Part shown: positions 3,913-51,042 of the stretch, piece after piece
Layout: each line of letters begins with the position of its first letter
Position numbering within the stretch: the stretch's first letter is position 1
NCBI GenBank assembly: GCA_038061715.1
Contig: JBBTYP010000011.1
Location: forward strand, 1-52,231
Length of the DNA: 52,231 nt
Direction of reading: 5' to 3'
Source: Patescibacteria group bacterium
GTDB lineage: Bacteria; Patescibacteriota; Minisyncoccia; Phycocordibacterales; UBA918
Made by a program: the position numbers and the translations under genes
Notes under the pieces: generated by a model
Databases searched by the model: none
What the model was told of the DNA's origin: nothing
What the model saw: the letters and a program-made list of their open reading frames with translations, nothing else

Positions 3913-4039
3913 ACCTAACCCCTCTTTGTCCAAAATGACAAGCATTATTAAAGCATACTTAGTCAATTATGTAAAGAAAAGCCGCACTGGTTAAAGTGCG
4001 ACTTAAGTCTGAGGCTGCCGATTCTGCTCAAATTCAGGC

Positions 4040-4552
4040 TTAGCTTCCTGAAAGAATGGAGTAGACAACCTCGGTACCCTTGTTTTGGTGCATTTCAATA
4101 TGATGCTGGTTTCGACAGGGACGACCTTCCACTGTCACCGAACCAAGCTGAAAGCCCTGGCTACTGAAAAATGATTCGGACTTGGTTTGGGTCGGGTGGT
4201 GGAAAAGGGTAACCTCCCTGGTATTTTCCTCCACCGATACCAGCCAGTGTTTGTCGAGGAGAGGTTTAGTAACCAAGGCCTCCTTCACTTGCTTGAAATA
4301 CTCCGAAGCAAGGGCACGAATGACTGTCCACTCTGATTCGGGCACCTTAAGCTGTTTAAGGGCAAAGGTAGCCGCCTCTGAGTAGTCCTGTCTGTGGGCT
4401 CTTGCGCCTCCCGATTTCAAAAATATTATTGTTTGTGACAAATTAGAATAATCGAAATCGCGACGCTCGTGGTCGTATTCTTTCCAACAGATCTTACTCA
4501 AAATTGGCTCGACAATGAGAGGACCACTGTCGTGTCGATACTGTGTAGCCAC
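4040..4552 (-). CDS. Hypothetical (orphan) protein
   Basis: 170-aa ORF, AAAGGA before GTG, downstream hairpin at ~3977-4004. Confidence 0.6.
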   Translation of the reverse strand: MATQYRHDSGPLIVEPILSKICWKEYDHERRDFDYSNLSQTIIFLKSGGARAHRQDYSEAATFALKQLKVPESEWTVIRALASEYFKQVKEALVTKPLLDKHWLVSVEENTREVTLFHHPTQTKSESFFSSQGFQLGSVTVEGRPCRNQHHIEMHQNKGTEVVYSILSGS

Positions 4553-10226: not shown

Positions 10227-10295
10227 TTGATTCTAACATTTTGCTGATGGATATACTCTTGACGGCATAGTTGGGGACAGTGTGAGTTGTGTGGA

Positions 10296-10421
10296 TATGA
10301 CCTACAAAAAGGGCACAATTCTTCGTTACTCTACGCAAAATATTCCTCACTGTACCAATGGGCACTTCGTCGTATTTTACTGTCTTCTCAACGTGAACAG
10401 TTCAGTTTGGCGTAGGTCATA
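10296..10421 (-). repeat. ERIC-like palindromic element, copy B (126 bp, includes cysS stop codon)
   Basis: Perfect 10-bp TIR TATGACCTAC/GTAGGTCATA with TA ends; internal GAAGTGCCC..GTACAGTGAGGA..TAACGAAG on minus strand. Confidence 0.65.
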
Positions 10422-11868
10422 GTTTAGTCAGTTTGGGGCCTTGAGGAGTGTCTTCGACTAGATAGCCTTTACGAGCAATGGCATCGCGCAGGAAATCAGC
10501 CTCGGCCCAATTGTGGGCGATGCGAGCTACCTCACGTTTGTCTATTAGTTCTTGAATTTCCGCTGGCAGTTCTGTGCTACCCACCACCCCTAAGAGCCGC
10601 TTACCCTCAGCCACATCTTCCGATAGGCCAATATCTAATACATCGTCCATCGCCATTAGAGTACCGCACTTGGTTTTTTCTTCGAGCCTAGGGTCTTTTA
10701 TCATGTCCCACAAGACGGCGATGGCACCTGGAGTATCAAGGTCGTTGCGCAAACAAGCATCAAATTTTTCCATGTAAGTTGCATCGGGGATATTGGAACG
10801 TTGCTTGAACTCTTCGTACATATAGCGTTTAAGACGATAAAGAGCTTGCTTGGAAGCTTTAAGGGCCTCCCAGGAGAAGTTTACTGGTGAGCGATAGTGA
10901 GCGGTGAGAAGCCAGTAGCGATAGTCATCGCCCGTAAAGCCCCGCTCGCGCAGGTGTCGGAGTGTGACTGAATTACCCAATGACTTGCCAATGCGCTGGT
11001 TGTCGATACGCAAGTGTTGTCCATGCATCCAGTATTGTACAAATTTCTTACCGGTAATACTTTCAGATTGAGCAATTTCACCGTTGTGATGAGTTGGCAT
11101 ATTGTCGATACCGCCAGTGTGGATATCAATTTGTTTACCCAGGGTAGCAAAAGCCATCGCCGAACACTCGATATGCCAGCCAGGAAATCCGGCACCAAAG
11201 CGACTGGGCCAACCTAATTCATTTTTTTTCCAAACAGCAAAATCAGCTGGGTGTTTTTTTTCGCTATTAACTTCTACTCGAGCCCCTTCTTGCAATTTAT
11301 TAATGTTAATTTTGCCTAAGCGGCCATAGGTAGGGAATTTGCTAATATCAAAGTAAGCACCATCAGAAGTTTCATAAACATAACCTTTGTCATCGAGAGT
11401 TTTAATCAAACTGACTTGCTTACCAACATAATCACTGGCCCTTGCCCAGGTAGTGGGTGGCATGATTTGAAGTTCTTCGGTGTCGTCCACAAAAGCTTTG
11501 ATGTAGATATCACCGAGTCTACGCATACCTTCGAGAGTGATAGGTAAGTCTTCGCGTTTGAGACCTTTCATCATCTTGTCTTCACCAGCATCTGCGTCGT
11601 CTGAGAGGTGTCCGAAATCTGTGAAGTTAATTGTGTGCTTTACCAAATAGCCATTTTTGATGAGAACTCGTTTTAAAATATCGGGGAAGAGATATGAGCG
11701 TAAATTACCAATATGTACATAGTCGTATACGGTTGGACCACAACTGTACATGGTGACATGAGAGTCGTTTAAAGATTGAAAAGTCTCTAACGAGTTGCTT
11801 TCCGAATTGTACAGCTTAATTTCAGGGTGAGAAATTGGGGTTTTTTTACCAAAGATATTGCCAAACAT
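10417..11868 (-). CDS. cysS: Cysteine--tRNA ligase
   Basis: YSCGPTVYDYVHIGN, GFPGWHIECSAM, HHNGEIAQSE; start at MFGNIF (TACACT -10 7 nt upstream). Confidence 0.95.
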   Translation of the reverse strand: MFGNIFGKKTPISHPEIKLYNSESNSLETFQSLNDSHVTMYSCGPTVYDYVHIGNLRSYLFPDILKRVLIKNGYLVKHTINFTDFGHLSDDADAGEDKMMKGLKREDLPITLEGMRRLGDIYIKAFVDDTEELQIMPPTTWARASDYVGKQVSLIKTLDDKGYVYETSDGAYFDISKFPTYGRLGKININKLQEGARVEVNSEKKHPADFAVWKKNELGWPSRFGAGFPGWHIECSAMAFATLGKQIDIHTGGIDNMPTHHNGEIAQSESITGKKFVQYWMHGQHLRIDNQRIGKSLGNSVTLRHLRERGFTGDDYRYWLLTAHYRSPVNFSWEALKASKQALYRLKRYMYEEFKQRSNIPDATYMEKFDACLRNDLDTPGAIAVLWDMIKDPRLEEKTKCGTLMAMDDVLDIGLSEDVAEGKRLLGVVGSTELPAEIQELIDKREVARIAHNWAEADFLRDAIARKGYLVEDTPQGPKLTKL

Positions 11869-37224: not shown

Positions 37225-38565
37225 CTATTCGTCTAGTTGTGAAAGCAGGGTGTCGATTCGATTGATATCCCGTGGGAATGGCACAGCTTCTTTGACATTC
37301 GGAAGCTCAAGCATTCGAGAGGTAAATCGCTCCAGGCCGGTTGAACAGCCGCCGTGTGGCGCTACGCCGTATTTGTGGTGCATTAAGTAGAAGCCAAATT
37401 TATCAGGGTCAAGGTTGCGACGTTTCATCTTGGCTACCATCGAGTCATATTCGTGATAGCGCTGAGCTCCACTATTTATTTCAAGACCGCGGAATAGAAG
37501 GTCGAAACTGCGACATAGTTCAGGTTTTTCTGGTATCTCAAGCGAGTAGAAGGCTCTCTTGTCGGTTGGAAACTCAGTAATAAATACAAAATCTGAATTA
37601 TGTTTTGCTTTGGCCCATTCACAAATCTTTCGTTCATGCTCCGGTTCCATATCAAGTTCTCCAATAGCGTCGATTCCGTATTCTTCTTTAAGAATTGTTT
37701 GTGTCTCAAGTAGAGTCAGTCGCGGGTATGGTCCTTCTGGCAATGCTGGTGCTGTGGTGTTAAAGCGACTAAATACTTCACTGTGTTTAGCTACAACAGA
37801 ATTAACCACCTCCCTAGTCACTGCCTCAAGTTCATTCATCACGTCATTATGGTCTTTGATGAAGCCCATTTCGAAGTCCATTTGGGTAATTTCTGCTAAG
37901 TGCCTTGTGGTAGCTGATTTCTCAGCGCGGAAAATTTTAGCAATAGTGAAAACGCGCTCAAAGGCACCGGTCATAATTTCTTTGTAAAGCTGGGGGCTGG
38001 TAGCGAGATTAGCGGTGCGACCGTTGAAGTATTCAACTTTGAAAACTTCAGCACCACCTTCAGCATCACTTCCAACCAGTGATGGTGACTGAAATTCTAC
38101 AAAGTCCCGCTTAATTAATGCATCCCGGTAGGCTTGCACGATAGTAGCTGACACTTTGAAGATGTCTTGTGCTCTTTGCATTTTTAGCGTCAGTGGTCTG
38201 TTATCCAAAACGGTTTCTAGTGAAAGTTCACCGTCTAGGTCAAATGGCATTGGGGCTGAAGCATTAAGTACTTCGATACTTGTGATTTCTAGTTCGATGT
38301 CGCCATTTAGCACGTTTACGTTGATCATTTTCTCTGGACGTTGATTAATTATTCCCTTCACTGCCACGGAATACTCAGCTCCAATATCCTTGGCTATTTC
38401 AAGTACTTCCGGTTTACCAAAAACCACACCTTGAATGAGCGAGCTGCGGTCGCGAAAATCAAAGAAGGCCATCTTGCCTTGGTGGCGGGCGACATTCACT
38501 ACGCCATTAATCAGCACCTCGGTACCGACGTAGTTTTTTAAGTCTTTTATTAGTGTTCTTTCCAT
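37225..38565 (-). CDS. aspS: Aspartate--tRNA(Asp/Asn) ligase, short non-discriminating (archaeal-like) type
   Basis: 446 aa, no GAD insert; LATSPQLYKE, FRAEKSATTRH, EINSGAQR, PHGG..GLER, PFPRD. Confidence 0.9.
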   Translation of the reverse strand: MERTLIKDLKNYVGTEVLINGVVNVARHQGKMAFFDFRDRSSLIQGVVFGKPEVLEIAKDIGAEYSVAVKGIINQRPEKMINVNVLNGDIELEITSIEVLNASAPMPFDLDGELSLETVLDNRPLTLKMQRAQDIFKVSATIVQAYRDALIKRDFVEFQSPSLVGSDAEGGAEVFKVEYFNGRTANLATSPQLYKEIMTGAFERVFTIAKIFRAEKSATTRHLAEITQMDFEMGFIKDHNDVMNELEAVTREVVNSVVAKHSEVFSRFNTTAPALPEGPYPRLTLLETQTILKEEYGIDAIGELDMEPEHERKICEWAKAKHNSDFVFITEFPTDKRAFYSLEIPEKPELCRSFDLLFRGLEINSGAQRYHEYDSMVAKMKRRNLDPDKFGFYLMHHKYGVAPHGGCSTGLERFTSRMLELPNVKEAVPFPRDINRIDTLLSQLDE

Positions 38566-38662
38566 ATATTTTTATCGTAGAAACGTCCAGCAATTTCGGG
38601 CGGGCTAAAGCCCGAAACTGGGACATAAATTAGCAATAGTCGCTTGCGCTCGTTTGCTCATT

Positions 38663-38820
38663 CAAATCGTTCCTACATACATATTAGATTAATAATACGA
38701 ATGCAGGGGCGATTACAATCTTGTGATTGCTCGCGGTGCCACCCTACTTCCCGACTGGTGTGCCAGTGCGGCTTGGTTTACTCATTTAACCTCCACAGTG
38801 TCAGCTGTTTCTTCGGTATC
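38663..38820 (-). promoter_or_regulatory. T-box riboswitch (Asp specifier) in aspS leader
   Basis: AGGGUGGCACCGCG...UCGCCCCU antiterminator (38705-38745); K-turn Stem I 38789-38817 with apical GAC (38800-38802); competing hairpin 38666-38713. Confidence 0.8.
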
Positions 38821-38825
38821 TATAT

Positions 38826-38854
38826 AGATTAGTATTGATTATTGGTCTGGTCAA
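38826..38854 (-). promoter_or_regulatory. Sigma70 promoter of T-box/aspS
   Basis: TTGACC-17 nt-TAATCT placing TSS just before Stem I. Confidence 0.6.
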
Positions 38855-38857
38855 GCA

Positions 38858-39190
38858 CTACTCTACTACAGTCATACGTAAATACGGCCGCCCATCACGC
38901 CAGTAATCAAGAGCAAAATCCTTATTTGAAAAAGGGTCGTGCGGCGCTCTATCTAGTTGAAATTTATTTAAAAAGTTCTCGTAGGCAGTCTCAGTTTCTG
39001 CGTCCTCTCCTGCATCGTTAATTAAAAAAATGGCGATATCAGTATCAGAATTTGGGACACGCTCTACTCTAGCCTTCGAACCAAGTTTCTCGCAGGTTTG
39101 TGAAAAGTAATCTAAAGCACTTCTAACCAAACCATTTTTAATAGTATCTTGTCGCTTCCCTACTTCAAATGGAGAATGGTTATACTGCAC
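38858..39190 (-). CDS. Hypothetical protein
   Basis: 110-aa ORF directly downstream of trpS. Confidence 0.6.
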   Translation of the reverse strand: MQYNHSPFEVGKRQDTIKNGLVRSALDYFSQTCEKLGSKARVERVPNSDTDIAIFLINDAGEDAETETAYENFLNKFQLDRAPHDPFSNKDFALDYWRDGRPYLRMTVVE

Positions 39191-39198
39191 TATCTTAA

Positions 39199-40152
39199 TT
39201 ATAGCGCAATTCCAATGGCTTGACGCACTTTTAGAAGAGTTGCGCCTGAAACTGTCTTGGCTCGAATTGCCCCGTCAGCAAGAACGGACTTCACTTCGGT
39301 ATCAGTGATCTCATTTCTCTTTTTGCGCAAAGGGGCAATAAAAGCTTCAAGATCGGAAATGAGAAGTTTTTTAAGGTCACCATAACGACCTTTATGTGCC
39401 TCATAGATGGGGTCAAGCTCTTCGGTTGGCTTTAGCAGCCGGTGTATAGCGTACACATTTTCTGGTCGTTCACCTGAAGAGTCGGTCACAATACTCATTA
39501 CCGCCTTCTCAATTTCCTCTTTACTACCAAAGAGTGGAATAGTATTACCATAACTCTTACTCATCTTTTGGCCGTCAGTGCCAGGGACTACACCCACACC
39601 ATTTAATATCATTTCAGTTGGCTCCTTAAGATAGTCGCCATAAGCACGATTAAATTTGCTTACAGCCTCACGCGCATACTCGATGTGCTGCCGCTGGTCT
39701 TCACCAACCGGTACGATGTCTGTGTCGTAGAGCGCAATATCAGCCGCCTGCAGAATCGGATAGGTAAACAAGCCCGCATTGGCATCAAGTCCCTTGGCCA
39801 CTTTATCTTTGTATGAGTGAGCCTGCATCAAAAACGGTACAGTCACCATACAGTTGAGCACCCAACCTAGCTCCAGATGGTCCTGATTGTCTGATTGACG
39901 AAAGATGACTGCTTTTGCTGGGTCTACGCCCACAGCCAGATAGTCCTTTACCACGCTAATGATGTTGTTGTGAAGTGCTTGTGGGTCACGGAGCGAGGTG
40001 AGAGCATGGTAGTCCGCTACCATAAGGAAACTGTCGTATTCTTCGTAGGTATCGACAAATGGCTTCAACGCCCCAAAGTAATTACCAATATGAAGAGTGC
40101 CAGATGATTGTAAACCAGTAAGGAGCCGTTTTTTGCTGTTAGACATAGCCAT
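39199..40152 (-). CDS. trpS: Tryptophan--tRNA ligase
   Basis: TGLQSSGTLHIGNYFGA, YPILQAADI, VPVGEDQRQH, KMSKSYGN. Confidence 0.97.
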   Translation of the reverse strand: MAMSNSKKRLLTGLQSSGTLHIGNYFGALKPFVDTYEEYDSFLMVADYHALTSLRDPQALHNNIISVVKDYLAVGVDPAKAVIFRQSDNQDHLELGWVLNCMVTVPFLMQAHSYKDKVAKGLDANAGLFTYPILQAADIALYDTDIVPVGEDQRQHIEYAREAVSKFNRAYGDYLKEPTEMILNGVGVVPGTDGQKMSKSYGNTIPLFGSKEEIEKAVMSIVTDSSGERPENVYAIHRLLKPTEELDPIYEAHKGRYGDLKKLLISDLEAFIAPLRKKRNEITDTEVKSVLADGAIRAKTVSGATLLKVRQAIGIAL

Positions 40153-40193
40153 ATACTACCAAAAAATCACTATTTTTTCACTAAATCTTACAC

Positions 40194-40231
40194 AAAAAAA
40201 GGGCCTGCGGAATGTGTATTGCGCAGGCCCT
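40194..40231 (-). terminator. Terminator of GNAT gene
   Basis: AAAAAAAGGGCCTGCG...CGCAGGCCCT. Confidence 0.75.
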
Positions 40232-40236
40232 CGATC

Positions 40237-40821
40237 CTAAAACAAAAGATTGTCTTGGTGCTGTTCACAGAAAATCTTCCAAATCGGAAGCCAGTCCTCT
40301 TTAAAAACGGCTAATTGAATAACGTCCCAGTAATCTCCTTTGGCAAAATGTTCTTGTTTTTTCCTGCCTTCTATTTTGTAGCCGCATTTTAAGCTGTAGC
40401 TAGTGCTACGTTCATTAAATGCGATTACTTGAGAGCAGATTTTGCGCAGGTTGAGCGTGTTAAAGGCATATTCAAGCAAAAGCATCTTTGCTTCACTGCC
40501 ATAGCCTTTATTCCAATATTCAGGCTCGCCGATCAATGCTCCAGTTGTGGCGACACGATGTCGCATATTGATGCCGTGTATACCCATGGTCCCAATTGGT
40601 GTACCATCAACAACTAACATTACTACTATGTTATTGTCTTTTCTTGTCGACAGATCATTAATCCACACTACCTCTTCGCTTTCGATGGTCGGTAGATAAG
40701 CACTAACATATTGTGTGACACGCGGATCGTTTATCCATCTCGTTAGATGCGGAGCGTCGCTCAGTTGTAGCGGCCTAAGTACAACCCGGTTACTACGACG
40801 AAAAATCACTTCATTTTCCAT
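40237..40821 (-). CDS. RimJ/RimL-family GNAT N-acetyltransferase
   Basis: VVLRPL, YWNKGYGSEA, AFNTLNLRKI, N..S..Y..KCGY..EG; SD AAGGAG. Confidence 0.88.
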   Translation of the reverse strand: MENEVIFRRSNRVVLRPLQLSDAPHLTRWINDPRVTQYVSAYLPTIESEEVVWINDLSTRKDNNIVVMLVVDGTPIGTMGIHGINMRHRVATTGALIGEPEYWNKGYGSEAKMLLLEYAFNTLNLRKICSQVIAFNERSTSYSLKCGYKIEGRKKQEHFAKGDYWDVIQLAVFKEDWLPIWKIFCEQHQDNLLF

Positions 40822-40853
40822 TGTCAACTCCTTTTGTTTTGTAAAGAACTGCC

Positions 40854-41043
40854 AAACAAAAACCTCAGCTTCTGTTCAGCTGAGGAATTCCCTTTGGTTG
40901 GGTTGTAAGAAGTTAGATTAAGAAGATAGACAAACTCCACAGCTGGACATAAACAAGCGCTTGCGCTCGATATCTTTAACGGCAAATAGCCCACAAGTCG
41001 TGGACACGTACCATCTATTCAGCTGCGGTATATGCATGTGCAT
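40854..41043 (-). promoter_or_regulatory. Leader-peptide transcription attenuator (41-aa uORF 40918-41043 plus terminator 40854-40885)
   Basis: uORF MHMHIPQLNRWYVSTTCGLFAVKDIERKRLFMSSCGVCLSS; mutually exclusive CAGCTG-based 1:2, 2:3, 3:4 pairings. Confidence 0.6.
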
Positions 41044-41047
41044 AATT

Positions 41048-41082
41048 AAAAGTTAACACAATATTGCATTGTGTCAACTTTT
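41048..41082. promoter_or_regulatory. Inverted repeat coinciding with the GNAT-leader promoter and the HK operon terminator position
   Basis: AAAAGTTAACACAAT-ATTGC-ATTGTGTCAACTTTT (14/15); minus strand TTGACA-16-TAACTT. Confidence 0.55.
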
Positions 41083-41098
41083 TTCATCCGATATACAT

Positions 41099-42757
41099 TT
41101 ACATCACCATCGGTAGTTCAAAGGTGAAGGTGGAGCCTTTGCCGTCGCCTTGCGAGGTGCAGGTGATGCTGCCGCCCATTTGCTCGGCCATCTTTAGAGC
41201 GACGTAAAGGCCGAGGCCAGTGCCCGATGTGTTTACTGAGTTGGCGTTGTCGGCTCGACTGAATTTGCTGAAGAGTTTAGAGATAGTCTCTTGGCTCATG
41301 CCGATGCCAGTGTCGGTGATATCGATGTAGATTCGCTTGGTTTTCAAGTCATCGCGGATAAAGACGCTGATTGAGCCTTTTTGCGTGTATTTAATCGAGT
41401 TATTGACGAGATTGTGGATGATTTGGTTGGTCTTGCCAATGTCGGCGTTCACAATTCCCTTTCCTTTCAGGTCTGAACGGAAAAGAAGGATGAGACTACG
41501 CTTCAGTGCCTCGGGGCGTAAGTCGTCACAGAGCTTACTGGTCATTTCAAGAAGGTTGAAATCACTGAGGTTGTACTTCATATTCCCGCTCTCAATCCGT
41601 GAGACATTCAGGTAATCCTCAATCGACATAGCCATGAGGGCGGTTGCTTCTTGTACTCGTTTTGCAGCGTCAAGCGCTTTCGCTGGTAACTGACCAAAAC
41701 TACCTTCCGCTAGCATGGAAGAGTAACCGCGAATAGCTGTAAGCGGACTGCGGAGCTGATGGGAAGCAATCGATACAAACTCCGATTTGGCTTTGTCGAG
41801 CTCCTTGAGCCGGACGTTTGCGGCTTCCAAATCTTTTGCCAAAAACTCAATTTTTTCACGTTGCATTGCTTCTCGCTTTGCGCCGCGGAGTAAAAGCACA
41901 CCAAAACCCAGAGTCACAACTGTGCTTGCAGAAGTAACACCGAATTCATATAAATCGTCGGTAAGTACTAAGTTAAAAATTGCAACAAGGACGAAAATCA
42001 GAAACAAAAATTTCGCCAGTACGAAACTACTCTGCTTAAAAGTGAAAGTACCTTGCTCAACGATATTAAAGGTTAGGATCAAAAGAAAAATAGGCAGGGT
42101 GAAAAGAGCGTAAAGATTTATCTCGTAGACTTCTGTTTGAGTTGCCACGTACTCTGATCCGGAAAATATCAAGAGAAAGGCCATCGTAGCGATTGTTAAA
42201 ACTAAAACCTGATTACGGTGCCGCTTGTCGCCCCAGTACTTTATTGTGCTAAGAATACCGGTTCCAAATATTATGGCTGTCGAAATAGTCTCGATAATGA
42301 CTTTGTAAATTGCTAAAAAATCATTGCCAGCCATTTCGCAATTTGGTTCGTTAAACTCTCCCACAGAGAGCCCCGAAACTGTTATCAGAAAAGGTATGAT
42401 AGCCACAATAACGGATAAGACACCCGCATAACTTGGCAACGTTGCGTTTCTTGTTGCTCTAGTAATAAAAAAGCATACAAGAGCCAGGTAAAAAAGAATA
42501 TTTATGTAATCTAATATCGACCAAGAGGCCGCTACTAAGTAATAATTATTTGAATGCCAAGCTATAAGGTCGGAGACAAGCCAGGCTGCAAGTAGTCCCG
42601 AAAAAAGAAAAAAAGTGTTCTCTGTCGCAGTGCGAACGTAGGTATTTTTTTTAATAAATATAACCAATACAAGAATCAGAAGTGCAGGAAGCAGGTGCGA
42701 ATAAAGAGCAAGTGATCGTAGTGAGTTTGTGGTTTCAAAACAGGTATTTAGATCCAT
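41099..42757 (-). CDS. Sensor histidine kinase with multi-TM N-terminal sensor
   Basis: About 8-9 hydrophobic segments, H-box SIASHQLRSPL, N-box NLVNNSIKYT, DTGIGM, GTGLGL. Confidence 0.92.
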   Translation of the reverse strand: MDLNTCFETTNSLRSLALYSHLLPALLILVLVIFIKKNTYVRTATENTFFLFSGLLAAWLVSDLIAWHSNNYYLVAASWSILDYINILFYLALVCFFITRATRNATLPSYAGVLSVIVAIIPFLITVSGLSVGEFNEPNCEMAGNDFLAIYKVIIETISTAIIFGTGILSTIKYWGDKRHRNQVLVLTIATMAFLLIFSGSEYVATQTEVYEINLYALFTLPIFLLILTFNIVEQGTFTFKQSSFVLAKFLFLIFVLVAIFNLVLTDDLYEFGVTSASTVVTLGFGVLLLRGAKREAMQREKIEFLAKDLEAANVRLKELDKAKSEFVSIASHQLRSPLTAIRGYSSMLAEGSFGQLPAKALDAAKRVQEATALMAMSIEDYLNVSRIESGNMKYNLSDFNLLEMTSKLCDDLRPEALKRSLILLFRSDLKGKGIVNADIGKTNQIIHNLVNNSIKYTQKGSISVFIRDDLKTKRIYIDITDTGIGMSQETISKLFSKFSRADNANSVNTSGTGLGLYVALKMAEQMGGSITCTSQGDGKGSTFTFELPMVM

Positions 42758-42766
42758 GGATACTGA

Positions 42767-43570
42767 TTAATTATAGCCCTTTTCCAAAAGTATTTCGCCT
42801 ATGGCGTTTGGATAACAATCCCAGTATATCCTCTTCTCTTCTTCCTTTGGTATTATGCGAATCACGAGAGGGTCAAGGCCGTAGGTCTCACATACTTTTT
42901 TAAATGAAGGCCTTGCAACTTTTGTAAAGAAATCTTCTTCTGTGGAGGAAGTGACAAAATTTTCGCATAGTACTGCGTCACGAAGAAACAAAGTCATCAA
43001 AGCTTCGTAGTATCTTGAAGCGTTATCTTCGTAATGTTTGAACCAGTCAGATAAGTCGATTGTGATTGAATCTGCCGAAAACAAAAAATATTTCTTAAAT
43101 AGTTCGTGGTGAAGAGAAAATAAAAGTTCTCCACTGGTAGTTCTCACATCAGCTAGAGGCTTACCAGTGTACATATTAAAATTAACAACTGTTTTGTAGG
43201 TGTAAGCGTCTACTCCCGTAGGGGATGTAAATTTAAAAATCGGCAGCTTCCCCAGTCCTCGCTTAAATAGGTTACTAGCACTTACAAATTTATCGGCCTG
43301 GTATTCAAAAATCAAAGGTTCGAAGGAGAGCTGTTTAGCTAGCTTCAAAAAACGCTCAGTTTCTGTAAGGGGTGAAGCGATTTGACGAAAAAGAACAAGC
43401 CGCGGTTTTTCAAAAACCTTTTCCAATTCTTCAGTCACTAGTATATTTTCACGTATACGCCTAAGAAGAGCCTGATTTTCTCGACGCTGCAGAAGTTCTT
43501 TTTTGGCACGCTCTATACTAGAATAACAGACATCGTACTCTTGATCGTAGGAGAAAAGAATGTCCTTCAT
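42767..43570 (-). CDS. Hypothetical soluble protein (enzyme-like, unknown family)
   Basis: 267 aa from MKDILF; 9 nt from the HK start and 8 nt from the upstream gene's stop. Confidence 0.75.
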   Translation of the reverse strand: MKDILFSYDQEYDVCYSSIERAKKELLQRRENQALLRRIRENILVTEELEKVFEKPRLVLFRQIASPLTETERFLKLAKQLSFEPLIFEYQADKFVSASNLFKRGLGKLPIFKFTSPTGVDAYTYKTVVNFNMYTGKPLADVRTTSGELLFSLHHELFKKYFLFSADSITIDLSDWFKHYEDNASRYYEALMTLFLRDAVLCENFVTSSTEEDFFTKVARPSFKKVCETYGLDPLVIRIIPKEEEKRIYWDCYPNAIGEILLEKGYN

Positions 43571-43578
43571 TTTATTTT

Positions 43579-43935
43579 TTATTCCGTGCAGACGTCTTCT
43601 TCGGACGCACCACATTCAATTCTTTCACAAACGCTCCCCTCCTCACATATATTTGAACAACTATTATCGCTGCATTGCTCGAATGCGGCAGCCGGAATGG
43701 TGAAAGCTTTGTAGTGTTCAAGTTCGTTAGGGGGGCAATATTCTTCACAATCCCTCAAAAAACAAATCTCAGAAGAAGGATCGCAAGCAGCTTCAATATA
43801 AAAGCTATAGTCCTTGGCAAAAATGAAACGAGTGTATGCTGAAAGGGTGATCAAGAAGATCGATATAATAATAAAACGTGTAAAAAGTCCTGTACCTGCA
43901 TTTTTGGAAAGAGAGCTATCGGTAATTTCAGTCAT
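43579..43935 (-). CDS. Small membrane-anchored Cys-rich protein (10 Cys)
   Basis: N-terminal TM; ACDPSSEICFLRDCEEYCP...CSDNSCSNICEEGSVCERIECGASEEDVC. Confidence 0.8.
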   Translation of the reverse strand: MTEITDSSLSKNAGTGLFTRFIIISIFLITLSAYTRFIFAKDYSFYIEAACDPSSEICFLRDCEEYCPPNELEHYKAFTIPAAAFEQCSDNSCSNICEEGSVCERIECGASEEDVCTE

Positions 43936-43988
43936 ATTAGTACCTATAGTGCCACGAATCGAGTCATTTTTCCAGCTTCAAGTGGGGT

Positions 43989-44885
43989 CTAAAGAACAAG
44001 AATTGCACTACCTATAAGGACACATGTGATACCCATAATTTTTCTCACCAGAGTTGATTTAGAATAGTCCTCTTCGATAGTTTCGAACCCAATCTGTGAT
44101 AAGACAAAGCCAATTATAATTATAAAGATAGGCTGATATGCTTCCGTGGTCTGGACCAGTGCAATCGGTGCCAGAAGAACAGCGAATCCAAAAAAAGTAT
44201 CACCAATTAGGGTCAGACTTTCGTTTGTAGCGTTTAGCGTGGTGCTTTTAAAAAAGTGTTCCTTTATAAATTGGTAAAATCGATGTCTAATACTTGGTAT
44301 TAAGACACAAAGCGCCAAACCAGTAAGAGCCATTCCTACTGATCTCCAGAACATTGAGTTCCAAAACTCATTTTCTAGGCTAGAGAACTTAAAAATTGTG
44401 TAAAGTAATCCGGTAATCGCGCTAGCTGAGATGGCGTAGAAGATGAGTTTAAAATTGAAGCCAGTTCCACCGCTATAACTCACTATCAAAGATCCTAGAA
44501 TTAAAAAAGCACCAGCTAATAGTTGTGCTGCGGTGAGTGATTCTCCTAAAATAAAATTACTAAAAAGAAGAGAGAAGAGAGGCGCCAACACCAGTAGGGT
44601 CATTACCACTGAGGCTTCGTCCTCAGTAAGAGCTTTTAAATAGAGAAAAACCCAGGCACTCATAAGAAGACCAGTGAACATTAGAAGAGTAGTTGTGGGT
44701 AGTTCAAAGGTTATAGGAGATAAGGTCACTGCAATTGGAAGCAGTATCAAAGGAAAGACAGTCGATGCAATGACCAGACCCCAGACATTACCGTCTTCAG
44801 CATGCTTATTAGTAAGATACTTATCTATTATATTAGTCAATGACCAGAAAAAAGCTGCCGCAATTCCATACAAAAAACCAACCAT
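43989..44885 (-). CDS. EamA/DMT family transporter
   Basis: 10 TM helices, NIIDKYL, FILGESLT, QPIF. Confidence 0.88.
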   Translation of the reverse strand: MVGFLYGIAAAFFWSLTNIIDKYLTNKHAEDGNVWGLVIASTVFPLILLPIAVTLSPITFELPTTTLLMFTGLLMSAWVFLYLKALTEDEASVVMTLLVLAPLFSLLFSNFILGESLTAAQLLAGAFLILGSLIVSYSGGTGFNFKLIFYAISASAITGLLYTIFKFSSLENEFWNSMFWRSVGMALTGLALCVLIPSIRHRFYQFIKEHFFKSTTLNATNESLTLIGDTFFGFAVLLAPIALVQTTEAYQPIFIIIIGFVLSQIGFETIEEDYSKSTLVRKIMGITCVLIGSAILVL

Positions 44886-44954
44886 GTTTTCAATTATAGC
44901 ATCACTAATTTGTAATCTTGCCCGCAGTATACAGTTTTTAGCTGACTATCGATC

Positions 44955-45440
44955 TCAAAGAATAAACAGTGCTACAAGAGGCAAAATTAGCCACCAGAAG
45001 AAGTATTCAGCGGGGGCGAAGAGGGATTGGATGGGGGTGCCGGGGGTGAGGAACTCAGTCACTGGTAGGACATGGAAGCTAAATACCATCACCAAAATAG
45101 TGGCGCAAAGTGAGAGGGTGAACTTCTTGGAAAAGGATTCTAGTTTCATCTCACGGAATTCATCGGGCATAATACGGAAACATAAAATTGTGGCTAGGAC
45201 GGTAAAGGCGAGGAAGACAATCAGCTTTGCCATCGAGACAGACACCGCGCCGCTGAGGCTGCCCAAGACAGCTTCGTAAAATGGAAATTCGACAGAAACA
45301 AGAAGTGCAAGGTAAAGACCAAAAATGATATTTATAACCGCTTGGCGGCCCTTAAAGATAGAAATAGAAAAAATAAAGCCAAGTACAATGAGGAGGTAGG
45401 CAATTTCTGATATAAAGTTGAGGAAAAAAGATGTGTCCAT
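44955..45440 (-). CDS. Hypothetical membrane protein
   Basis: 161 aa, about 5 TM helices. Confidence 0.75.
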   Translation of the reverse strand: MDTSFFLNFISEIAYLLIVLGFIFSISIFKGRQAVINIIFGLYLALLVSVEFPFYEAVLGSLSGAVSVSMAKLIVFLAFTVLATILCFRIMPDEFREMKLESFSKKFTLSLCATILVMVFSFHVLPVTEFLTPGTPIQSLFAPAEYFFWWLILPLVALFIL

Positions 45441-45708
45441 TTATTCCATTATATATCTATTATTTGATAATACTATACTAGCTGTGATTGAACTGAACTA
45501 TTATAGGGTCAAGTTTCTAACTATAATTATTCGCTACGCTTCAATTCTAGTAAGAACTTCCTCCGCGGGCTCGCAATCCACCACAAGGGTATTTCCGTTT
45601 TTATAGTTGGCAGGCCTCCTTAAAAACTAGGTCCGTCGCGCTAGGAATTGCGCTCCTCATATAGCTCCGCCTCATTTAGATTAAAAATCTTTCAGATTTT
45701 CTGAACGC

Positions 45709-46782
45709 CTAAATGCCTTCTTCCTTAAGTTCTTCTATGAGCTTCTGAGCTTTGCGGGAGAGTTTTTTTGGGATTTCAATTGAGACTTTGACCATAAAAT
45801 CGCCGCGGCCACGTTCACTGGGGACACCCTTCTCCTTGATACGGATGAGTTCACCGTGAGCAATACCAGCTGGAATTTTAACTTCAAGGCTACCGTCTAA
45901 TGTCTCGACCCGATATGCACTGCCTAGTATGGCATCAGTGAGCTTAATCGGAAGATTTGTAGACAAAGTAGTGCCTTCACGGCGGATAGTCTTATGTGCC
46001 TCGACATGCACTTTGATATAGAGATCACCTGGCTGGCCAGCGCTTTGGGCCTCACCGCGTCCAGTCATGCGTATAACTTCGCCATTTTGGATGCCAGCTG
46101 GCACTTTGATGGAAATTTCTTCTTGAGTGCGAGCAACCCCTGCCCCACGGCAGTGTTCACATTTTTCTTTGGGAATCTTACCGGTACCATTACAGTCGGA
46201 GCATTCACGTACGGTTGAAAAACTGCCCATGACGCTTTGACGAGTTTCGCGCACTTTGCCATTACCGCCACAAGTATTACAAGAGATTTTTTCTGAGCCA
46301 GCTTTCGCTCCCGATCCGTTGCACTGTGCACAAGTGTTATTTTTGGTAAGAAGTACTTTACGGGTAATACCGAAGATAGATTCACTGAAGCTCAGGTTGA
46401 TGTCGATAGAAACATCGCGACCGCGCTCCTGCCTACGACCACCACCAAAGCCGAAGTTCTCGAAGATATCATTGAGATCAAACTCAAATCCGCCAGCACT
46501 AAAGCCGCCACCTTGTTGCGCAAAGTCGCCCCAATTAAAGCCGCCAAAACCACCAGCTCCTCCCCCACTATTGTTAAAGGCGTGTCCGTAGCTATCGTAT
46601 TCGGCCTTCTTTTTATCATCACTAAGAATAGCGTAGGCCTCGGTTACTTCCTTGTATTTCTCCTCATCACCACCTTGTTTGTCAGGATGGTATTTAGCCG
46701 CCATTTTACGAAAAGCTTTCTTGACCTCATCTTTCGATGAGCCCTTCTGAAGGCCTAGAATTTGATAGTAATCCTTATTCAT
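45709..46782 (-). CDS. dnaJ: Chaperone DnaJ
   Basis: J-domain HPD, G/F region, four CxxCxGxG repeats. Confidence 0.97.
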   Translation of the reverse strand: MNKDYYQILGLQKGSSKDEVKKAFRKMAAKYHPDKQGGDEEKYKEVTEAYAILSDDKKKAEYDSYGHAFNNSGGGAGGFGGFNWGDFAQQGGGFSAGGFEFDLNDIFENFGFGGGRRQERGRDVSIDINLSFSESIFGITRKVLLTKNNTCAQCNGSGAKAGSEKISCNTCGGNGKVRETRQSVMGSFSTVRECSDCNGTGKIPKEKCEHCRGAGVARTQEEISIKVPAGIQNGEVIRMTGRGEAQSAGQPGDLYIKVHVEAHKTIRREGTTLSTNLPIKLTDAILGSAYRVETLDGSLEVKIPAGIAHGELIRIKEKGVPSERGRGDFMVKVSIEIPKKLSRKAQKLIEELKEEGI

Positions 46783-46860
46783 GCTTAGTTATTTGTGCGT
46801 ATCATGGCATAAAGTAAGAAGTGGCGCAAACATGTGGTTTGCATCGCTTCCACCTTGCTA

Positions 46861-48726
46861 CTAGGCCTCGTGGACAGTCGGTTCGTCGTCTGACTTGGCT
46901 TCTTCTGGTTTAGCTTCAGCTGCTGCCGCCTGACTCATAATTTCTCCAATTTTTTGCATTGCGGTTGAGAGAGCCTCACTAGCAGATTCAATCGCCGCCT
47001 TATCTTCCCCATCCTTAGCTTCACGCACGGCTTTGATTTTTTCTTCTATCTCAGTTTTTACCTCAGCTGGGATGGCCGCCTCGTGTTCTTTCAAAGCTTT
47101 CTCAGCCGTGTAGGCTAATTGTTCTGCTAAGTTACGTGTTTCGATTAGTTCTTTTTTCTTTGCATCTTCTCCCGCATGATCTTCGGCGTCTTTTTTCATG
47201 CGTTCAATGTCGCTTTCAGAAAGACCCGAACTGGCCTCAATGCGGATCGATTGCTCTTTACCGGTAGTTTTGTCCTTAGCGGTTACTTTAAGCACACCGT
47301 TACTATCAACATCGAAGGTTACTTCTACTTGCGGAACACCGCGAGGGGCTGGGGGTATGCCGTCGAGGTTAAATTCTCCCAGGACTTTATTATCGCCAAA
47401 CATCGGCCGCTCACCTTGAGCAACACGAATCATGGTCGAGGTTTGGTTATCAGACGCGGTTGAAAAAACTTGGGATTTTTTGGTTGGAATGTGGGTGTTT
47501 TTTTCAATTAGTTTAGTGTTTACACCGCCCATAGTTTCGATACCGAGGGAAAGGGGTATGACATCAACCAGAGTGATGTCCTTGACGTCGCCTTGAAAGA
47601 TACCAGCTTGGATAGCAGCACCAAGAGCTACCACCTCGTCAGGATTAATGGTGCGATTGGGTTCTTTACCAAAGAGAGCTTTCACCGCGTTTTGAATAGC
47701 TGGCATGCGGGTTTGGCCACCGACAAGAATGATCTCGTCAATTTCTTCTTTTTTAAGTCCAGAAGCTTCTAGGGCGCGTTTGGTAATTTCGATAGATTTA
47801 TCGACGTACTCGTGAGAAATTTCCTCGAGTTTAGCCCTTGTGAGCTTTACATCCATATGGAGTGGTCCGTCAGAGCCTTGCGAAATAAACGGAATGTTGA
47901 TACCTGTTTCTGGGGTGCTGGAAAGTTCGTGCTTGGCTTTTTCGGCGGCCTCGTCAAGACGTTGCAATGCCAACTTATCCTTACCAAGATCAACACCATT
48001 ACTTTTCTTAAATTCTTCGATCAAAAAACGTACAATACCTTGGTCGATATCACGACCGCCCATGTGTGCATCGCCGTCGGTTGACATCACTTCAATCACA
48101 TCATCACCGACTTCAAGAACAGATATGTCAAAGGTTCCTCCACCAAAGTCAAAGACTACTATCTTCTCGTCCTTTTTCTTGTTAAAGCCGTAGGCCAAGG
48201 CGGCCGCAGTCGGCTCATTGATAATGCGCTTTACTTCTAAGCCGGCAATTTTACCAGCATCTTGAGTCGCCTTACGCTGTGCGTCATTAAAGTACGCCGG
48301 TACAGTAATAACAGCTTCGGTGATTTTCTCACCTAACTTAGCTTCTGCGTCGGCTTTAAGTTTTGAAAGTATCATCGCTGATGCTTCCTCGGGACGATAA
48401 TCCTTGCCGTCCATAGTGACCAAAACACCACCATCAGGGCCTTTTTTAATTTCGTAAGGCACAATTGCTTTGTCCTTCTGTACCACTTCTTCATCAAAAG
48501 TGTGACCCATGAAGCGTTTTATACCGTAGATAGTATTGGTCGGGTTGGTTACCGCTTGTCGTTTGGCGATTTGTCCTACCAGCCGCTCGTTGGTCTTTGA
48601 GATCGCCACAATCGATGGCGTTGTGCGGTTACCTTCGGTATTTTCAATAATAGTTGGTTCCCCTGCTTCGATAACTGCCATTGCAGAGTTAGTGGTTCCT
48701 AAATCGATTCCTAGAATTTTTGCCAT
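46861..48726 (-). CDS. dnaK: Chaperone DnaK
   Basis: [33 protein letters not shown]. Confidence 0.98.
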
Positions 48727-48766
48727 GGTTATAAAATTAAAATTTAAAGTAAAAAGTGGGAAGTCA

Positions 48767-49363
48767 TTATTCGGTATATTCTCCTACTATTACGCGTGCG
48801 GGACGAATTACTTCCACTGTTCCATCAACATCCATCTCGTAGCCTTTTTGCAAAACTGCCGTGACCGTATCGTGCAACTTTTTTTCGTCGACAGGGGTCA
48901 AGCTGATTGCTTCGTGCTTGTGTGGGTCGAAGGTTGCTCCGTTGGGATTGATTGCTACAACCTTGTACGATTCTATTAATTTTTGTAGTTGGGTATGGAT
49001 TCCTTCAATTCCCTTGCGCCAATTATCGTCAGCTTTTTCCCACGTCTCTTTATCAGAGCGGGCCATTTCGAAGCTGTCGGCTAGAGGTAGAAGGGCCTCG
49101 ACGTGCTTTTTTGTAGAGCGGATTTTATCTTGGGCTCGCTCGTTTTCTAAACGCCGTTTGGCATTGAGGAAGTCCGCTCGCTCGCGAGCTGCTTCCTCCA
49201 TCACTTGTTGTTTCTCTTCAGTAATGCGAGCAATTTTTTCACGGAGCCGCTTCATTTTACTGGCTCCCAATGCCTCCTCGTCTGATAATTCAAGATCTTC
49301 TGATTCATGGTGGTCATCCTGTGTCATTTCAATTTCGTCTTCAAAATCATTTTCGTTCACCAT
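48767..49363 (-). CDS. grpE: Nucleotide exchange factor GrpE
   Basis: [26 protein letters not shown]. Confidence 0.95.
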
Positions 49364-49371
49364 ACTAAGTC

Positions 49372-49400
49372 ATTATAAATCTAAAAGAGGGTGATGTCAA
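49372..49400 (-). promoter_or_regulatory. Perfect consensus sigma70 promoter of grpE-dnaK-dnaJ (leaderless)
   Basis: TTGACA-17 nt-TATAAT, 8 nt before ATG. Confidence 0.85.
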
Positions 49401-49476
49401 AATTGTGCAAATCTGGCAACTACAGATTAATTTTAAATTTTGTAAAGGTGGCAGGAATTTACAAAGGAGTAAAATA

Positions 49477-49665
49477 ATTAAGCACGATGAAAACCTCTAC
49501 GTTGTAGTTGTGCACGACCGCGAAGTCTATACGCAAGTAGTGACGACGGGTCAGTTCCTTGAGGCGTATGGCCTAGCCTACCGAAGAAGATTGTCAGTCG
49601 GTTCTTCAGGTACACATCGGTTTGTTCTGGATTACCCCAGTCAAACTGCATCAGAGCTGCAATAG
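49477..49665 (+). CDS. Small orphan protein, possible AUU start
   Basis: SD AAGGAG (49464-49469) 7 nt before in-frame ATT; terminator at 49707. Confidence 0.4.
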   Translation: MKHDENLYVVVVHDREVYTQVVTTGQFLEAYGLAYRRRLSVGSSGTHRFVLDYPSQTASELQ

Positions 49666-49706
49666 TGCTCTGTGCACAATGTGTATCGCTTCAACCACTG
49701 AACACA

Positions 49707-49736
49707 AAAGCCCGGTTAATACCGGGCTTTTGTTGT
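49707..49736. repeat. 30-bp direct repeat copy 1 (hairpin terminator)
   Basis: AAAGCCCGGTTAATACCGGGCTTTTGTTGT. Confidence 0.85.
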
Positions 49737-49799
49737 ATAAATTATATAAAAGAAATCGCCACGGGGGTCGTGGCGACCTCTGTGGCGGTTAGTTGTGTC

Positions 49800-50456
49800 T
49801 CAGAAACCAAATTCCTTTCTGAGACCAGTATTGTAAGACTCCAATTTGTTCATAACACTTATTGCAGTCTGTTGAATCTTGCTTGATCCAACGTGTAGGT
49901 GTGACATCAAGGTAAATAAAATGTCACGAGTTGTTTCAGGGTAGATGTCGTTATCAAGAATTCGTCTTATATCAGGCGGAAAGACAGAATCAGGTTTATT
50001 CCGTTGAGAAAATGACGGTTTCAAAATCTTGAACGACCAGGAATGCTCCACTGGTACATCATCCACAGTGTGCATAGCGATGGTTAGGTTCGCGTGAAGC
50101 TTGTGTGAGGTTCCGGTGTGACAGTACAGCGCAAGCTTTTTGATAATGAATGCAACATTGTTACTGCCGACAAGTACCACAGCCCTGCCACCGGCCGATG
50201 CCGAAAGTTTACCTTCATGCTTAGCTAGTACATCCGCAAGAAAAGGTATCATCACACCCCACATAACTTTTCCATACGCACAACCCCAACAGCGATGATT
50301 CTTGCCTCCAGCAAGTGCATTAGTGATCCAGTCCAATCCATCTCTCGCTAAAGAGGTAGGATCGGCGTTCGTGGCTGTAATTGATTGAATCTTTTCATCA
50401 TGCAATATTCTTTGCATGATCCAAACAGTTTCTGGCATGAGATCTTTTGATTTCAT
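49800..50456 (-). CDS. Hypothetical (orphan) protein
   Basis: 218 aa, SD GGGAG, own terminator ~49748-49780. Confidence 0.65.
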   Translation of the reverse strand: MKSKDLMPETVWIMQRILHDEKIQSITATNADPTSLARDGLDWITNALAGGKNHRCWGCAYGKVMWGVMIPFLADVLAKHEGKLSASAGGRAVVLVGSNNVAFIIKKLALYCHTGTSHKLHANLTIAMHTVDDVPVEHSWSFKILKPSFSQRNKPDSVFPPDIRRILDNDIYPETTRDILFTLMSHLHVGSSKIQQTAISVMNKLESYNTGLRKEFGF

Positions 50457-50661: not shown

Positions 50662-51042
50662 TTAGTTCTTGAGCGAATCAAGAAATTCCTTGATGTAGTA
50701 AGGTTCGACGTCTCGCCTTTTCAAATGAAAGGTGACGAAGGGAAATTTCTCATGAACCCTTTCCAGATCTATCCATTCGTGTCCGGTGGAATATCTAGAC
50801 TCACTACTGTGTAAAAGACAGGGTAGGTCTAGCTTAAATGCCCAGATACGATACACGATTTCATATCCCGAAACATAGGGCATCTGCACATCAGAAATAA
50901 CTGCGTCGAATTTCTCCTCACCAAGCAAGTCCTCAGCTAATCGACTATCATCAACCGCCTCAACCTGGTGTCCTAAGTCCTTGATTACCTTTTGGTACTT
51001 ACGGACTTGGTCGGGAATATCGTCAATTAGTAAAACTCGCAT
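50662..51042 (-). CDS. Single-domain response regulator (REC)
   Basis: VLLIDD, ISDVQMP phospho-Asp, conserved S and K; SD GAAGGA. Confidence 0.85.
   Translation of the reverse strand: MRVLLIDDIPDQVRKYQKVIKDLGHQVEAVDDSRLAEDLLGEEKFDAVISDVQMPYVSGYEIVYRIWAFKLDLPCLLHSSESRYSTGHEWIDLERVHEKFPFVTFHLKRRDVEPYYIKEFLDSLKN

Follow-up and report, generated by a model that had tools for sequence, protein, structure and literature searches.

The comQXP locus of Bacillus and the agrBDCA locus of Staphylococcus each place a histidine kinase with multiple transmembrane (TM) segments beside signal-making genes, and in both the kinase core is conserved while the signal genes vary together with the sensor half of the kinase as one block. 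In LuxM/LuxN and CqsA/CqsS an enzyme gene likewise adjoins a kinase whose sensor is built entirely of TM helices; these kinases are hybrid ones, and we know of no comparable block exchange for them. Very little is known about the sensing of surroundings by the tiny, host-dependent Patescibacteria. Here we describe a four-gene locus at positions 41099-44885 of a 52,231-nt stretch of DNA (positions 1 to 52,231 of contig JBBTYP010000011.1, assembly GCA_038061715.1; this whole stretch is called the window below) from a Patescibacteria group bacterium. The locus encodes a carrier of the EamA family, a cysteine-rich protein (CYS), a soluble protein (UNK) and a 9-TM histidine kinase. The genome studied here, G000 in our comparisons, comprises 781 kb in 26 contigs; other G-numbers denote genomes and L-numbers the compared loci.

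As in the comQXP and agr pherotype loci, a block that includes the sensor half varies here on a conserved kinase core. Unlike in those loci, the blocks that replace one another consist of non-homologous genes rather than being alleles, the operon contains no response regulator gene, and nothing homologous to ComQ, ComX, AgrB or AgrD was detected, UNK and CYS being without a match in Pfam or NCBIfam. The resemblance to LuxM/LuxN and CqsA/CqsS lies in the adjacency of an enzyme-like gene to a kinase with an all-helix membrane sensor, whereas the enzyme families are unrelated.

The four open reading frames (ORFs) of 41099-44885 are all on the minus strand, with intergenic gaps of 53, 8 and 9 nt from EamA to kinase as read off the sequence, the same co-oriented and tightly spaced arrangement that an initial annotation of this DNA had reported. 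The start of UNK was taken at 43570, as supported by the family alignment (a longer ORF starts at 43615). The features of the locus are as follows.

43989-44885, minus strand: EamA/DMT (drug/metabolite transporter)-family carrier, 298 aa, by Pfam EamA; first gene of the exchangeable block
43579-43935, minus strand: CYS, 118 aa, 10 Cys, N-terminal membrane anchor or signal, by alignment and hydropathy
42767-43570, minus strand: UNK, 267 aa, soluble, by ORF list and family alignment
41099-42757, minus strand: histidine kinase, 552 aa, 9 TM, HisKA and HATPase_c
41858-42757, minus strand: kinase sensor half, residues 1-300, by hydropathy, alignments and GC content at third codon positions; part of the exchangeable block
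41099-41857, minus strand: kinase core, DHp (dimerization and histidine phosphotransfer) and catalytic domains, by Pfam and identity to G012
41828-44958, no strand: replaced block of ~3.1 kb, without DNA similarity to the syntenic G012 locus
44955-45440, minus strand: TM161, 161 aa, 5 TM, conserved left flank

Comparison with a close relative, G012, delimits the exchangeable part. The S9, DnaK, DnaJ and TM161 proteins of G012 are 94%, 90%, 86% and 93% identical to those of the window, and its syntenic locus (L138) reads DnaJ-TM161-[227-aa membrane protein]-SET-kinase. The core of the G012 kinase (L043) is 82% identical to that of the window, the closest found, while its sensor is only 22% identical; along the alignment the identity rises from 0.2-0.3 to 0.8-0.95 at residues ~295-310, just past the last TM helix. 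A blastn comparison of positions 38001-50000 with L138 aligns only 41100-41827 (75%), 44959-45440 (77%), 45709-49400 (74%) and 49464-49515 (52 nt), and finds no DNA similarity to the G012 locus within 41828-44958. The replaced block is bounded on one side by the beginning of the kinase core and on the other by the end of TM161, and the kinase-core DNA is as similar to G012 (75%) as the flanks are. TM161 itself adjoins differing cassette types and is 57.5% identical in G024. At the block borders only short, chance-like repeat matches were seen, and a mobile-element signature was not found there.

Across the other loci the two halves of the kinase behave differently. Core identity to the window within the genus is 57-68% whatever lies upstream, while sensor identity is 46-49% in the loci with CYS and at most 26% in the others. 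The upstream proteins show a similar division, with identities of 38-59% in CYS-type loci and 25-30% in others for UNK, and of 45-52% and 31-32%, respectively, for EamA. We built separate trees of sensor and core for 31 kinases, with cassette groups set from gene neighbourhood before tree building (L046 and L053, truncated; L051, a weak match; L055, a tandem copy; L025-L027, of other families; and the metagenome kinases were left out). In the sensor tree the CYS-linked sensors form a clade at 100/100. In the core tree the CYS-linked kinases are scattered, and the window kinase is sister to the SET-type kinase L043 of G012 at 100/100. The approximately unbiased (AU) test rejects a CYS-type clade for the core (p 1e-46) and a clade of window plus L043 for the sensor (p 1.7e-42).

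Identities, breakpoint, blastn and incongruent trees agree with the proposal of the initial annotation that this is a swappable cassette, in which synthase and sensor vary as a block on a conserved core. On the strength of these sequence comparisons, 41828-44958 is very probably an exchangeable sensory input cassette, spliced in frame onto a kinase core that was inherited with the flanks. Judging from gene content, the same site in related genomes is occupied by other, non-homologous gene sets, each with its own sensor type: either a membrane protein and a SET methyltransferase, or an AdoMet decarboxylase, a membrane protein and an aminoacyl transferase of the LPG_synthase_C type.

The kinase gene also shows a step in base composition. 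Spot counts had put the GC content of the kinase core at about 57-60%, which is about right: the value is 0.587 for codons 501-552, and 0.535 for the 200-nt segment 41100-41299 vs. 0.345-0.41 across 41900-44900. At third codon positions (GC3) the step, which could have vanished there, persists and grows, from 0.37 in the sensor half to 0.595 in the core and up to 0.72 at the 3' end (last 50 codons). GC3 is 0.358 in UNK, 0.361 in CYS and 0.344 in EamA, and the mean of the genes of the genome is 0.441 (standard deviation 0.061). The sensor-to-core step of +0.225 is the largest among the 99 genes of at least 500 aa in G000, the runner-up being +0.093, and a GC3 of 0.595 is reached by 1.1% of 795 segments of 250 codons in this genome. 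The position of the step is that of the sensor/core junction. A positive step was found in 22 of 24 kinases of the same family, and one of at least 0.1 in 11 of the 24; being family-wide, it may mark two halves under different evolutionary regimes and not necessarily a recent import. The GC3 of the window core is 0.595 vs. 0.464 in the orthologous G012 core, and gene conversion among kinase paralogues is one idea for the high value. Hydrophobic codon bias was considered as a cause of the step and rejected, because the correlation between hydrophobic fraction and GC3 in G000 is weak and positive (r 0.14).

Homologues of the four genes, which the initial annotation expected to co-occur, keep together far beyond chance, and their order recurs widely among Patescibacteria. 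Among 15 UNK-bearing genome loci (L022 was dropped as a duplicate of L008), the kinase adjoins or follows UNK in 12, CYS-like genes are present in nine, and EamA was found in seven with phmmer and in two more with Pfam (L026, below the cut-off, and L027). Metagenomes scanned with the motif [HN]GILFENF as seed gave 80 loci, or 71 clusters after UNK was collapsed at 90% identity. The gene directly downstream of UNK is a kinase in 38 of the 59 clusters that have a downstream ORF, and a kinase lies at most two genes downstream in 42 of the 59; CYS stands directly upstream of UNK in 29/61 clusters and EamA followed by CYS in 12/48. Gene junctions within the cassettes are tight or overlapping. The gene order also varies, with UNK-CYS-kinase, UNK-UNK-kinase, SET-UNK-kinase, UNK-SET-kinase and AdoMetDC-UNK all represented. 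Paired UNK paralogues precede the kinase in L100, L103, L069 and L091, with CYS between them in some. In L082/L086:9800-11818 the UNK locus adjoins a gene for a TonB-dependent receptor, and the UNK family is therefore probably also found outside Patescibacteria, in outer-membrane bacteria.

The commonest upstream partner of the kinase family is a small SET-domain protein, the gene for which lies directly before the kinase and at times overlaps it by 4 nt. Pfam confirmed the domain in all six proteins scanned (L009, L011, L033, L035, L040 and L138), and five more are SET-like by eye only (L034, L036, L039, L047 and L056). A multi-TM protein of 225-240 aa without a Pfam family regularly precedes the SET gene (e.g. 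L033:3133-3810 and L138:8276-8959), and in L033 and several relatives it carries a WWPEDWWPED repeat. Other genes found upstream of the kinase encode an EamA-like protein (L037), a PrmA-like methyltransferase overlapping the kinase start (L050) and an AdoMet decarboxylase (L057). In G024 the upstream set consists of an AdoMet decarboxylase, a 213-aa membrane protein, an LPG_synthase_C protein (PF09924, E 3e-27) and CYS, followed by the kinase; the LPG_synthase_C protein here takes the place of UNK, and in L106 such a protein is encoded two genes from UNK. Within the cassette or next to it, AdoMet decarboxylase genes are present in L026, L057 and L139 (the G024 locus, G024:C32) according to Pfam, and in L060/L062, L095 and L131 according to phmmer with the L026 protein; in L122 a pyruvoyl arginine decarboxylase precedes UNK. 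A theme among the recurring partners is that they are enzymes acting on amines, amino acids or S-adenosylmethionine (SAM), each with a membrane protein. CYTH-domain proteins adjoin the kinase or UNK in two unrelated loci (L138:11387-11986 and L100:414-1001).

The kinase has the domains expected of a class I (HisKA-type) sensor histidine kinase, to which it belongs: PF00512 (HisKA) at residues 323-391 with 50.4 bits against a cut-off of 26.9, and PF02518 (HATPase_c) at residues 443-550 with 92.7 bits against 26.4. H333, N449, D482, G484 and G486 are invariant across 32 kinases. The hydropathy of the sensor shows eight clear hydrophobic segments and a weaker ninth, and the alternating loop charges predict an outside N-terminus. 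The outer loops are short and contain three or four acidic and no basic residues. A multi-TM sensor with extracytoplasmic cysteines had been described at the outset, and C6 and C140, invariant in the sensor family, do lie in predicted outside segments. They are, however, not specific to a CYS partner: that idea was rejected, as both are also conserved in kinases without a CYS neighbour, and they seem to belong to the structure of the sensor family itself. This family occurs in 25 of 61 related genomes, usually beside TrpRS.

Sensor subtype and CYS go together. G024 has CYS and a kinase and no UNK, and its sensor is 48% identical to that of the window. In G006 and G009, which have UNK and lack CYS, such a sensor either was not detected or reaches at most 26% identity. 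Sensor subtype thus follows the presence of CYS and not that of UNK, which fits a partnership between CYS and sensor. CYS consists of one N-terminal hydrophobic segment and a domain of ~70-95 residues with 10 cysteines and a CPPN motif; all 10 cysteines fall in conserved columns of a 22-sequence alignment. The net charge of the ectodomain is -14 here and negative in all 22 homologues. A profile search returned 41 proteins, four of them named hypothetical protein and the others unnamed. Passages of 10.1101/335083 and PMC4736985 treat other cysteine-rich proteins.

The carrier matches PF00892 with 48.5 bits (cut-off 28.2) over one stretch, residues 2-136, and has 10 hydrophobic segments, as befits a member of the EamA, or drug-metabolite transporter, family. 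In NCBIfam it shows weak matches, far below cut-off, to a carboxylate/amino acid/amine transporter family and to an O-acetylserine/cysteine exporter. At the place of EamA, upstream of CYS or beside UNK, some loci encode a 4-TM family of ~120-210 aa with the motif YDWxKxDWLGIE and without a Pfam model (L025:6934-7539, L009:7875-8447 and 24 metagenome ORFs, e.g. L063:6953-7450); this family is absent from G000.

UNK belongs to a large protein family. An exhaustive profile search gave 819 representatives at E<=1e-3, of which 355 at E<=1e-30, while a word-based search found only 10 relatives. In the phylum UNK is rare, occurring in 7 of the 61 related genomes and in 6 of 401 genomes sampled phylum-wide. 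Ten family members gave no Pfam match at E<=1, 118 members gave only scattered single weak matches in NCBIfam, and a PDB profile search with the 118 sequences gave a single match at chance level (E 1.8). Fused members exist: three proteins carry an N-terminal GNAT domain and three a C-terminal SET domain. A search for fused forms of 525-2000 aa found none, which counts as weak evidence by the tool's own grading.

An AlphaFold2 model of UNK, built from the 118-sequence alignment, has a pLDDT of 94.9 and a pTM of 0.91. The separate model in the ESM Atlas was poor (pLDDT 0.31, all matches <0.9) and was not used. Foldseek found nothing in PDB at E<=0.001 with the AlphaFold2 model or with a first model of UNK. 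An exhaustive structural search with VIA-align gave, for the first model and the AlphaFold2 model alike, a list made up almost purely of HUP-class Rossmann-like proteins:

BshC (4wbd_A): top match with both models, at Z 7.6 with the first (223 residues aligned, root-mean-square deviation 5.9) and at Z 7.3 with the AlphaFold2 model (222 residues, deviation 5.1)
class I LysRS: Z 7.1-7.2
TyrRS: Z 5.1-5.7
ATP sulfurylases, NMNAT and PPAT: Z about 5-5.6
cyclodipeptide synthases: 5mlq at Z 4.5 and 4.2, 5ocd at Z 4.4, ~148-150 residues aligned, ranks 36-50

The aligner calls Z 8 safe and the best values, 7.3-7.6, lie below it, so only the fold class is taken from these matches and no reaction. The Rossmann-like sheet of the model bears an inserted hairpin. 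Near-invariant polar residues of the family are R29, R62, E70, E89, D93, N100, K103, H154, Y188, E203 and E211, and most of them stand at or just after the ends of modelled strands, where the active site of a Rossmann-type protein usually lies; in the model they would occupy such a site. UNK therefore looks like an enzyme-like protein with a HUP/Rossmann-like fold, and the suggestion of the initial annotation that it is an enzyme gains support from the model to this extent.

The best structural neighbours of the model are BshC and the catalytic domains of class I aminoacyl-tRNA synthetases, from which UNK differs in being a single 267-aa domain without a profile match and without their signature motifs. 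HIGH (or H/TxGH) is absent: after the strand at 57-61 the family has R62..A-T/S-P67..E70. A KMSKS-type loop is absent as well, the strand at 199-202 being followed by E203-N-F...E211..F214 with no conserved His or Lys. Both positions were inferred from secondary structure. Membership of the BshC family (PF10079) was rejected, as no profile match was found in UNK or genome-wide while controls were positive in three genomes. Cyclodipeptide synthases are small stand-alone proteins resembling class I synthetases, lack HIGH and KMSKS and release diffusible products; UNK shares with them its small size and the lack of both motifs, with structural matches at Z 4.2-4.5. They nevertheless rank below many HUP proteins, and their catalytic Ser/Tyr/Glu pattern cannot be mapped onto UNK. 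Membership of their family (PF16715) was also rejected: there was no profile match in UNK, in 10 members or in the six-frame translation of G000, and a Bacillus subtilis control was positive. Complex prediction of UNK with kinase residues 285-552, both as alignments, scored 0.00 against a mark of 0.32 and counts neither way.

The best explanation as a whole, which we put forward tentatively, is that the exchangeable input cassette works as a make-export-and-sense unit. Enzyme, carrier, outer-face protein and sensor move as a unit, and the product of the enzyme is therefore most likely found at or beyond the membrane, where the sensor could read it. Neighbouring genes point to amine or polyamine chemistry, and an acidic CYS ectodomain together with acidic outer sensor loops would suit a cationic ligand. 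It is possible, though rather doubtful, that what is made, exported and sensed is a small, probably cationic compound of the amine type. UNK would then build or modify such a compound, with an amino acid, a polyamine or SAM as its source; transport through the membrane would fall to the EamA carrier and detection to the acidic ectodomain of CYS together with the acidic outer loops of the sensor; and the conserved kinase core would phosphorylate a stand-alone REC protein. By keeping the resident core while the input is swapped, the link to a resident regulator would be preserved, as in comQXP and agr. In this scheme UNK may be the signal synthase, EamA the exporter and CYS the co-receptor, the roles proposed in the initial annotation. 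For CYS the tracking of one sensor subtype fits a partnership; the role of co-receptor is one that we infer.

A number of observations weigh against the make-export-and-sense explanation. EamA is the least constant part of the cassette and replaceable: it is absent from most cassettes (EamA-CYS occurs in 12/48 clusters), an unrelated 4-TM protein replaces it in L025 and L009, and an unrelated 213-aa multi-TM protein is among the upstream genes in L139. UNK has no kinase within two genes in 17/59 clusters, and in L013:5753-6700 and L028:8873-9805 no kinase stands beside it and a Peptidase_M28-like gene follows. The kinase family in turn is commoner than UNK (25/61 vs. 7/61 related genomes), and the kinases of L044, L045, L048 and L049 have no evident upstream gene (the ORFs there were not scanned). 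The metagenome loci sample only part of the UNK family, as they derive from a single-motif seed. Fold matches of the UNK model are weak (best Z 7.3-7.6) and name no reaction, and without HIGH and KMSKS an ATP-dependent activation by UNK has no motif support. The operon lacks a response regulator, no REC gene being present between 40800 and 45700. The GC3 step, being shared across the kinase family, does not on its own date a transfer. Finally, the SET, GNAT and PrmA-like neighbours fit protein modification, considered below, better than a small-molecule signal.

A more specific form of the make-export-and-sense explanation, and an unlikely one in our judgement, is that Patescibacteria possess horizontally exchangeable make-and-sense cassettes. 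UNK, with a shape recalling class I tRNA synthetases, would be a new type of synthase for a diffusible signal derived from an amine, a small carrier would be the exporter, and the 9-TM kinase would read the signal together with an acidic, disulfide-rich ectoprotein. The cassette types found at one chromosomal site (CYS/UNK, SET and AdoMetDC/LPG_synthase_C) would then behave like pherotypes. If true, no earlier cell-cell signalling system would have been described for such episymbionts.

GraSR/ApsSR, which with VraFG, MprF and Dlt serve cationic peptide sensing and envelope charge in Firmicutes, suggest a different function for the locus. UNK or the LPG_synthase_C protein might add an amino acid or amine to a lipid or envelope polymer, EamA or another small membrane protein might flip the product outward, CYS and the sensor might detect cationic peptides, polyamines or surface charge, and the kinase would adjust the system; we consider such an envelope-charge or cationic-stress module doubtful. 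The locus resembles GraSR/ApsSR in its acidic outer sensor surface (a CYS ectodomain negative in 22/22 homologues, outer loops with three or four acidic and no basic residues), in an accessory membrane protein, which is of varying family and always beside the enzyme, and in its link to an aminoacyl-transfer enzyme through the LPG_synthase_C protein (PF09924, E 3e-27), in the position of UNK in G024 and two genes from UNK in L106. The nearest folds to UNK are those of aminoacyl-activating or ligase-type enzymes, and polyamine genes are recurrent neighbours. It differs in that GraS has two TM segments vs. nine here, that no ABC transporter is present, and that UNK is neither MprF nor DltA. Moreover, a single positional replacement, in G024, is thin evidence for equal function, the EamA family is known for the transport of small solutes and not for lipid flipping, and cassettes of the SET type do not fit lipid aminoacylation.

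It is also conceivable, although quite unlikely, that the locus senses a metabolite from outside, e.g. one derived from a host, jointly with its transport, in the manner of the trigger transporters and flux sensing exemplified by DctA-DcuS and LysP-CadC. EamA would take up or expel the metabolite, UNK would convert it, and the 9-TM sensor would read either the ligand or the condition of the carrier, CYS serving as binding partner on the outer face. The conserved order carrier-CYS-UNK-kinase and the short outer sensor loops, as expected of a kinase that relies on a partner, agree with this, as do the small genome (781 kb) and the life of Saccharibacteria as episymbionts dependent on host metabolites. 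What such co-sensing leaves unexplained, without being in conflict with it, is the joint exchange of enzyme, carrier and sensor with a junction exactly at the core, and EamA is missing from most cassettes.

SET, GNAT and PrmA-like enzymes are best known for modifying proteins, and together with UNK they could act on signalling proteins or on CYS and tune the pathway much as CheR/CheB do on chemoreceptors. We regard this as improbable, since it leaves no role for the carrier or the polyamine genes, and since the conserved part of CYS lies outside the cell, beyond the reach of a cytoplasmic enzyme once exported. Nevertheless, the SET gene directly precedes the kinase, at times overlapping it by 4 nt (the domain being confirmed in 6/6 proteins scanned), UNK-SET and GNAT-UNK fusions exist, and the PrmA-like methyltransferase gene overlaps the kinase start in L050. 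That the four genes are chance neighbours without a shared function, and the GC step a composition artefact, is extremely improbable: small, gene-dense genomes do crowd unrelated genes, and housekeeping tRNA synthetase genes flank many such loci, but the adjacency is kept across families of the phylum and in 38/59 metagenome clusters, the genes are replaced as a block, and none of the other 99 long genes of G000 compared shows so large a GC3 step.

The output of the kinase is probably a stand-alone REC protein. About eight REC proteins are encoded in G000, six of 123-135 aa and two of 169 and 269 aa, and an output domain is not evident in any of them. Among the compared loci, only L026, L077 and L124 have a REC gene after the kinase. 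The kinase-following REC proteins of L124 and L026 match G000 C1:8490-8858 at 1.5e-30 and 1.1e-21. By comparison, the lone REC at 50662, to which the initial annotation had pointed as the nearest regulator, is matched by the L026 REC at 4.5e-5 and by the L124 REC not at all at E<=1e-3. It is not the best candidate for a partner, C1:8490-8858 matching far better. The C-terminal half of the REC at 50662-51042 is divergent.

The locus is a variant of the two-component input modules that come with accessory genes matched to them, a known kind of system, and two of its protein families, UNK and CYS, lack a model in the libraries that were searched. A description of the cassette was not found, at the level of listings and without supplements, in the full-text literature on Saccharibacteria/Patescibacteria kinases, quorum sensing, SET and Cys-rich membrane proteins. 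The UNK family, large (819 representatives) and uncharacterised, combines a fold of enzyme type with a fixed kinase partner and offers a testable handle, as does the family of 10-Cys ectoproteins that co-varies with one sensor subtype. The locus is also a clean natural case of input-domain swapping on a two-component kinase, with a breakpoint within ~10 residues at the end of the last TM helix, and this natural junction may guide the design of sensor chimeras. Should the block produce a signal of its own, Saccharibacteria would be shown to have cell-cell signalling, perhaps diversified in the way of pherotypes; should it be an envelope-charge module, it would bear on the survival of episymbionts on their hosts.

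The surroundings of the locus contain a few further features.

45488-45459, minus strand: promoter-like site upstream of TM161, consensus match only
40863-40885, minus strand: terminator-like hairpin and T run downstream of the kinase, pattern match only
50662-51042, minus strand: lone REC, Pfam Response_reg

TM161, separated from EamA by 69 nt, is possibly the first gene of the transcription unit. The hairpin at 40863-40885, with an 8-bp stem containing five GC pairs and followed by TTTTTGTTTG, is the probable end of the operon, as far as a sequence pattern can indicate. Upstream of EamA lie TM161 and then DnaJ, DnaK and GrpE; downstream of the kinase, beyond the hairpin, are a GNAT gene and TrpRS. 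A 218-aa ORF at 49800-50456 has no family match, and a 110-aa ORF at 38858-39190 shows weak matches only, to minimal nucleotidyltransferases (MntA-like, E 0.007). In L139 a gene for an IS200-like transposase lies between DnaJ and TM161 (3490-4239), and a second kinase of the same family follows in tandem at 9536-11233; tandem pairs also occur in G018 and G001.

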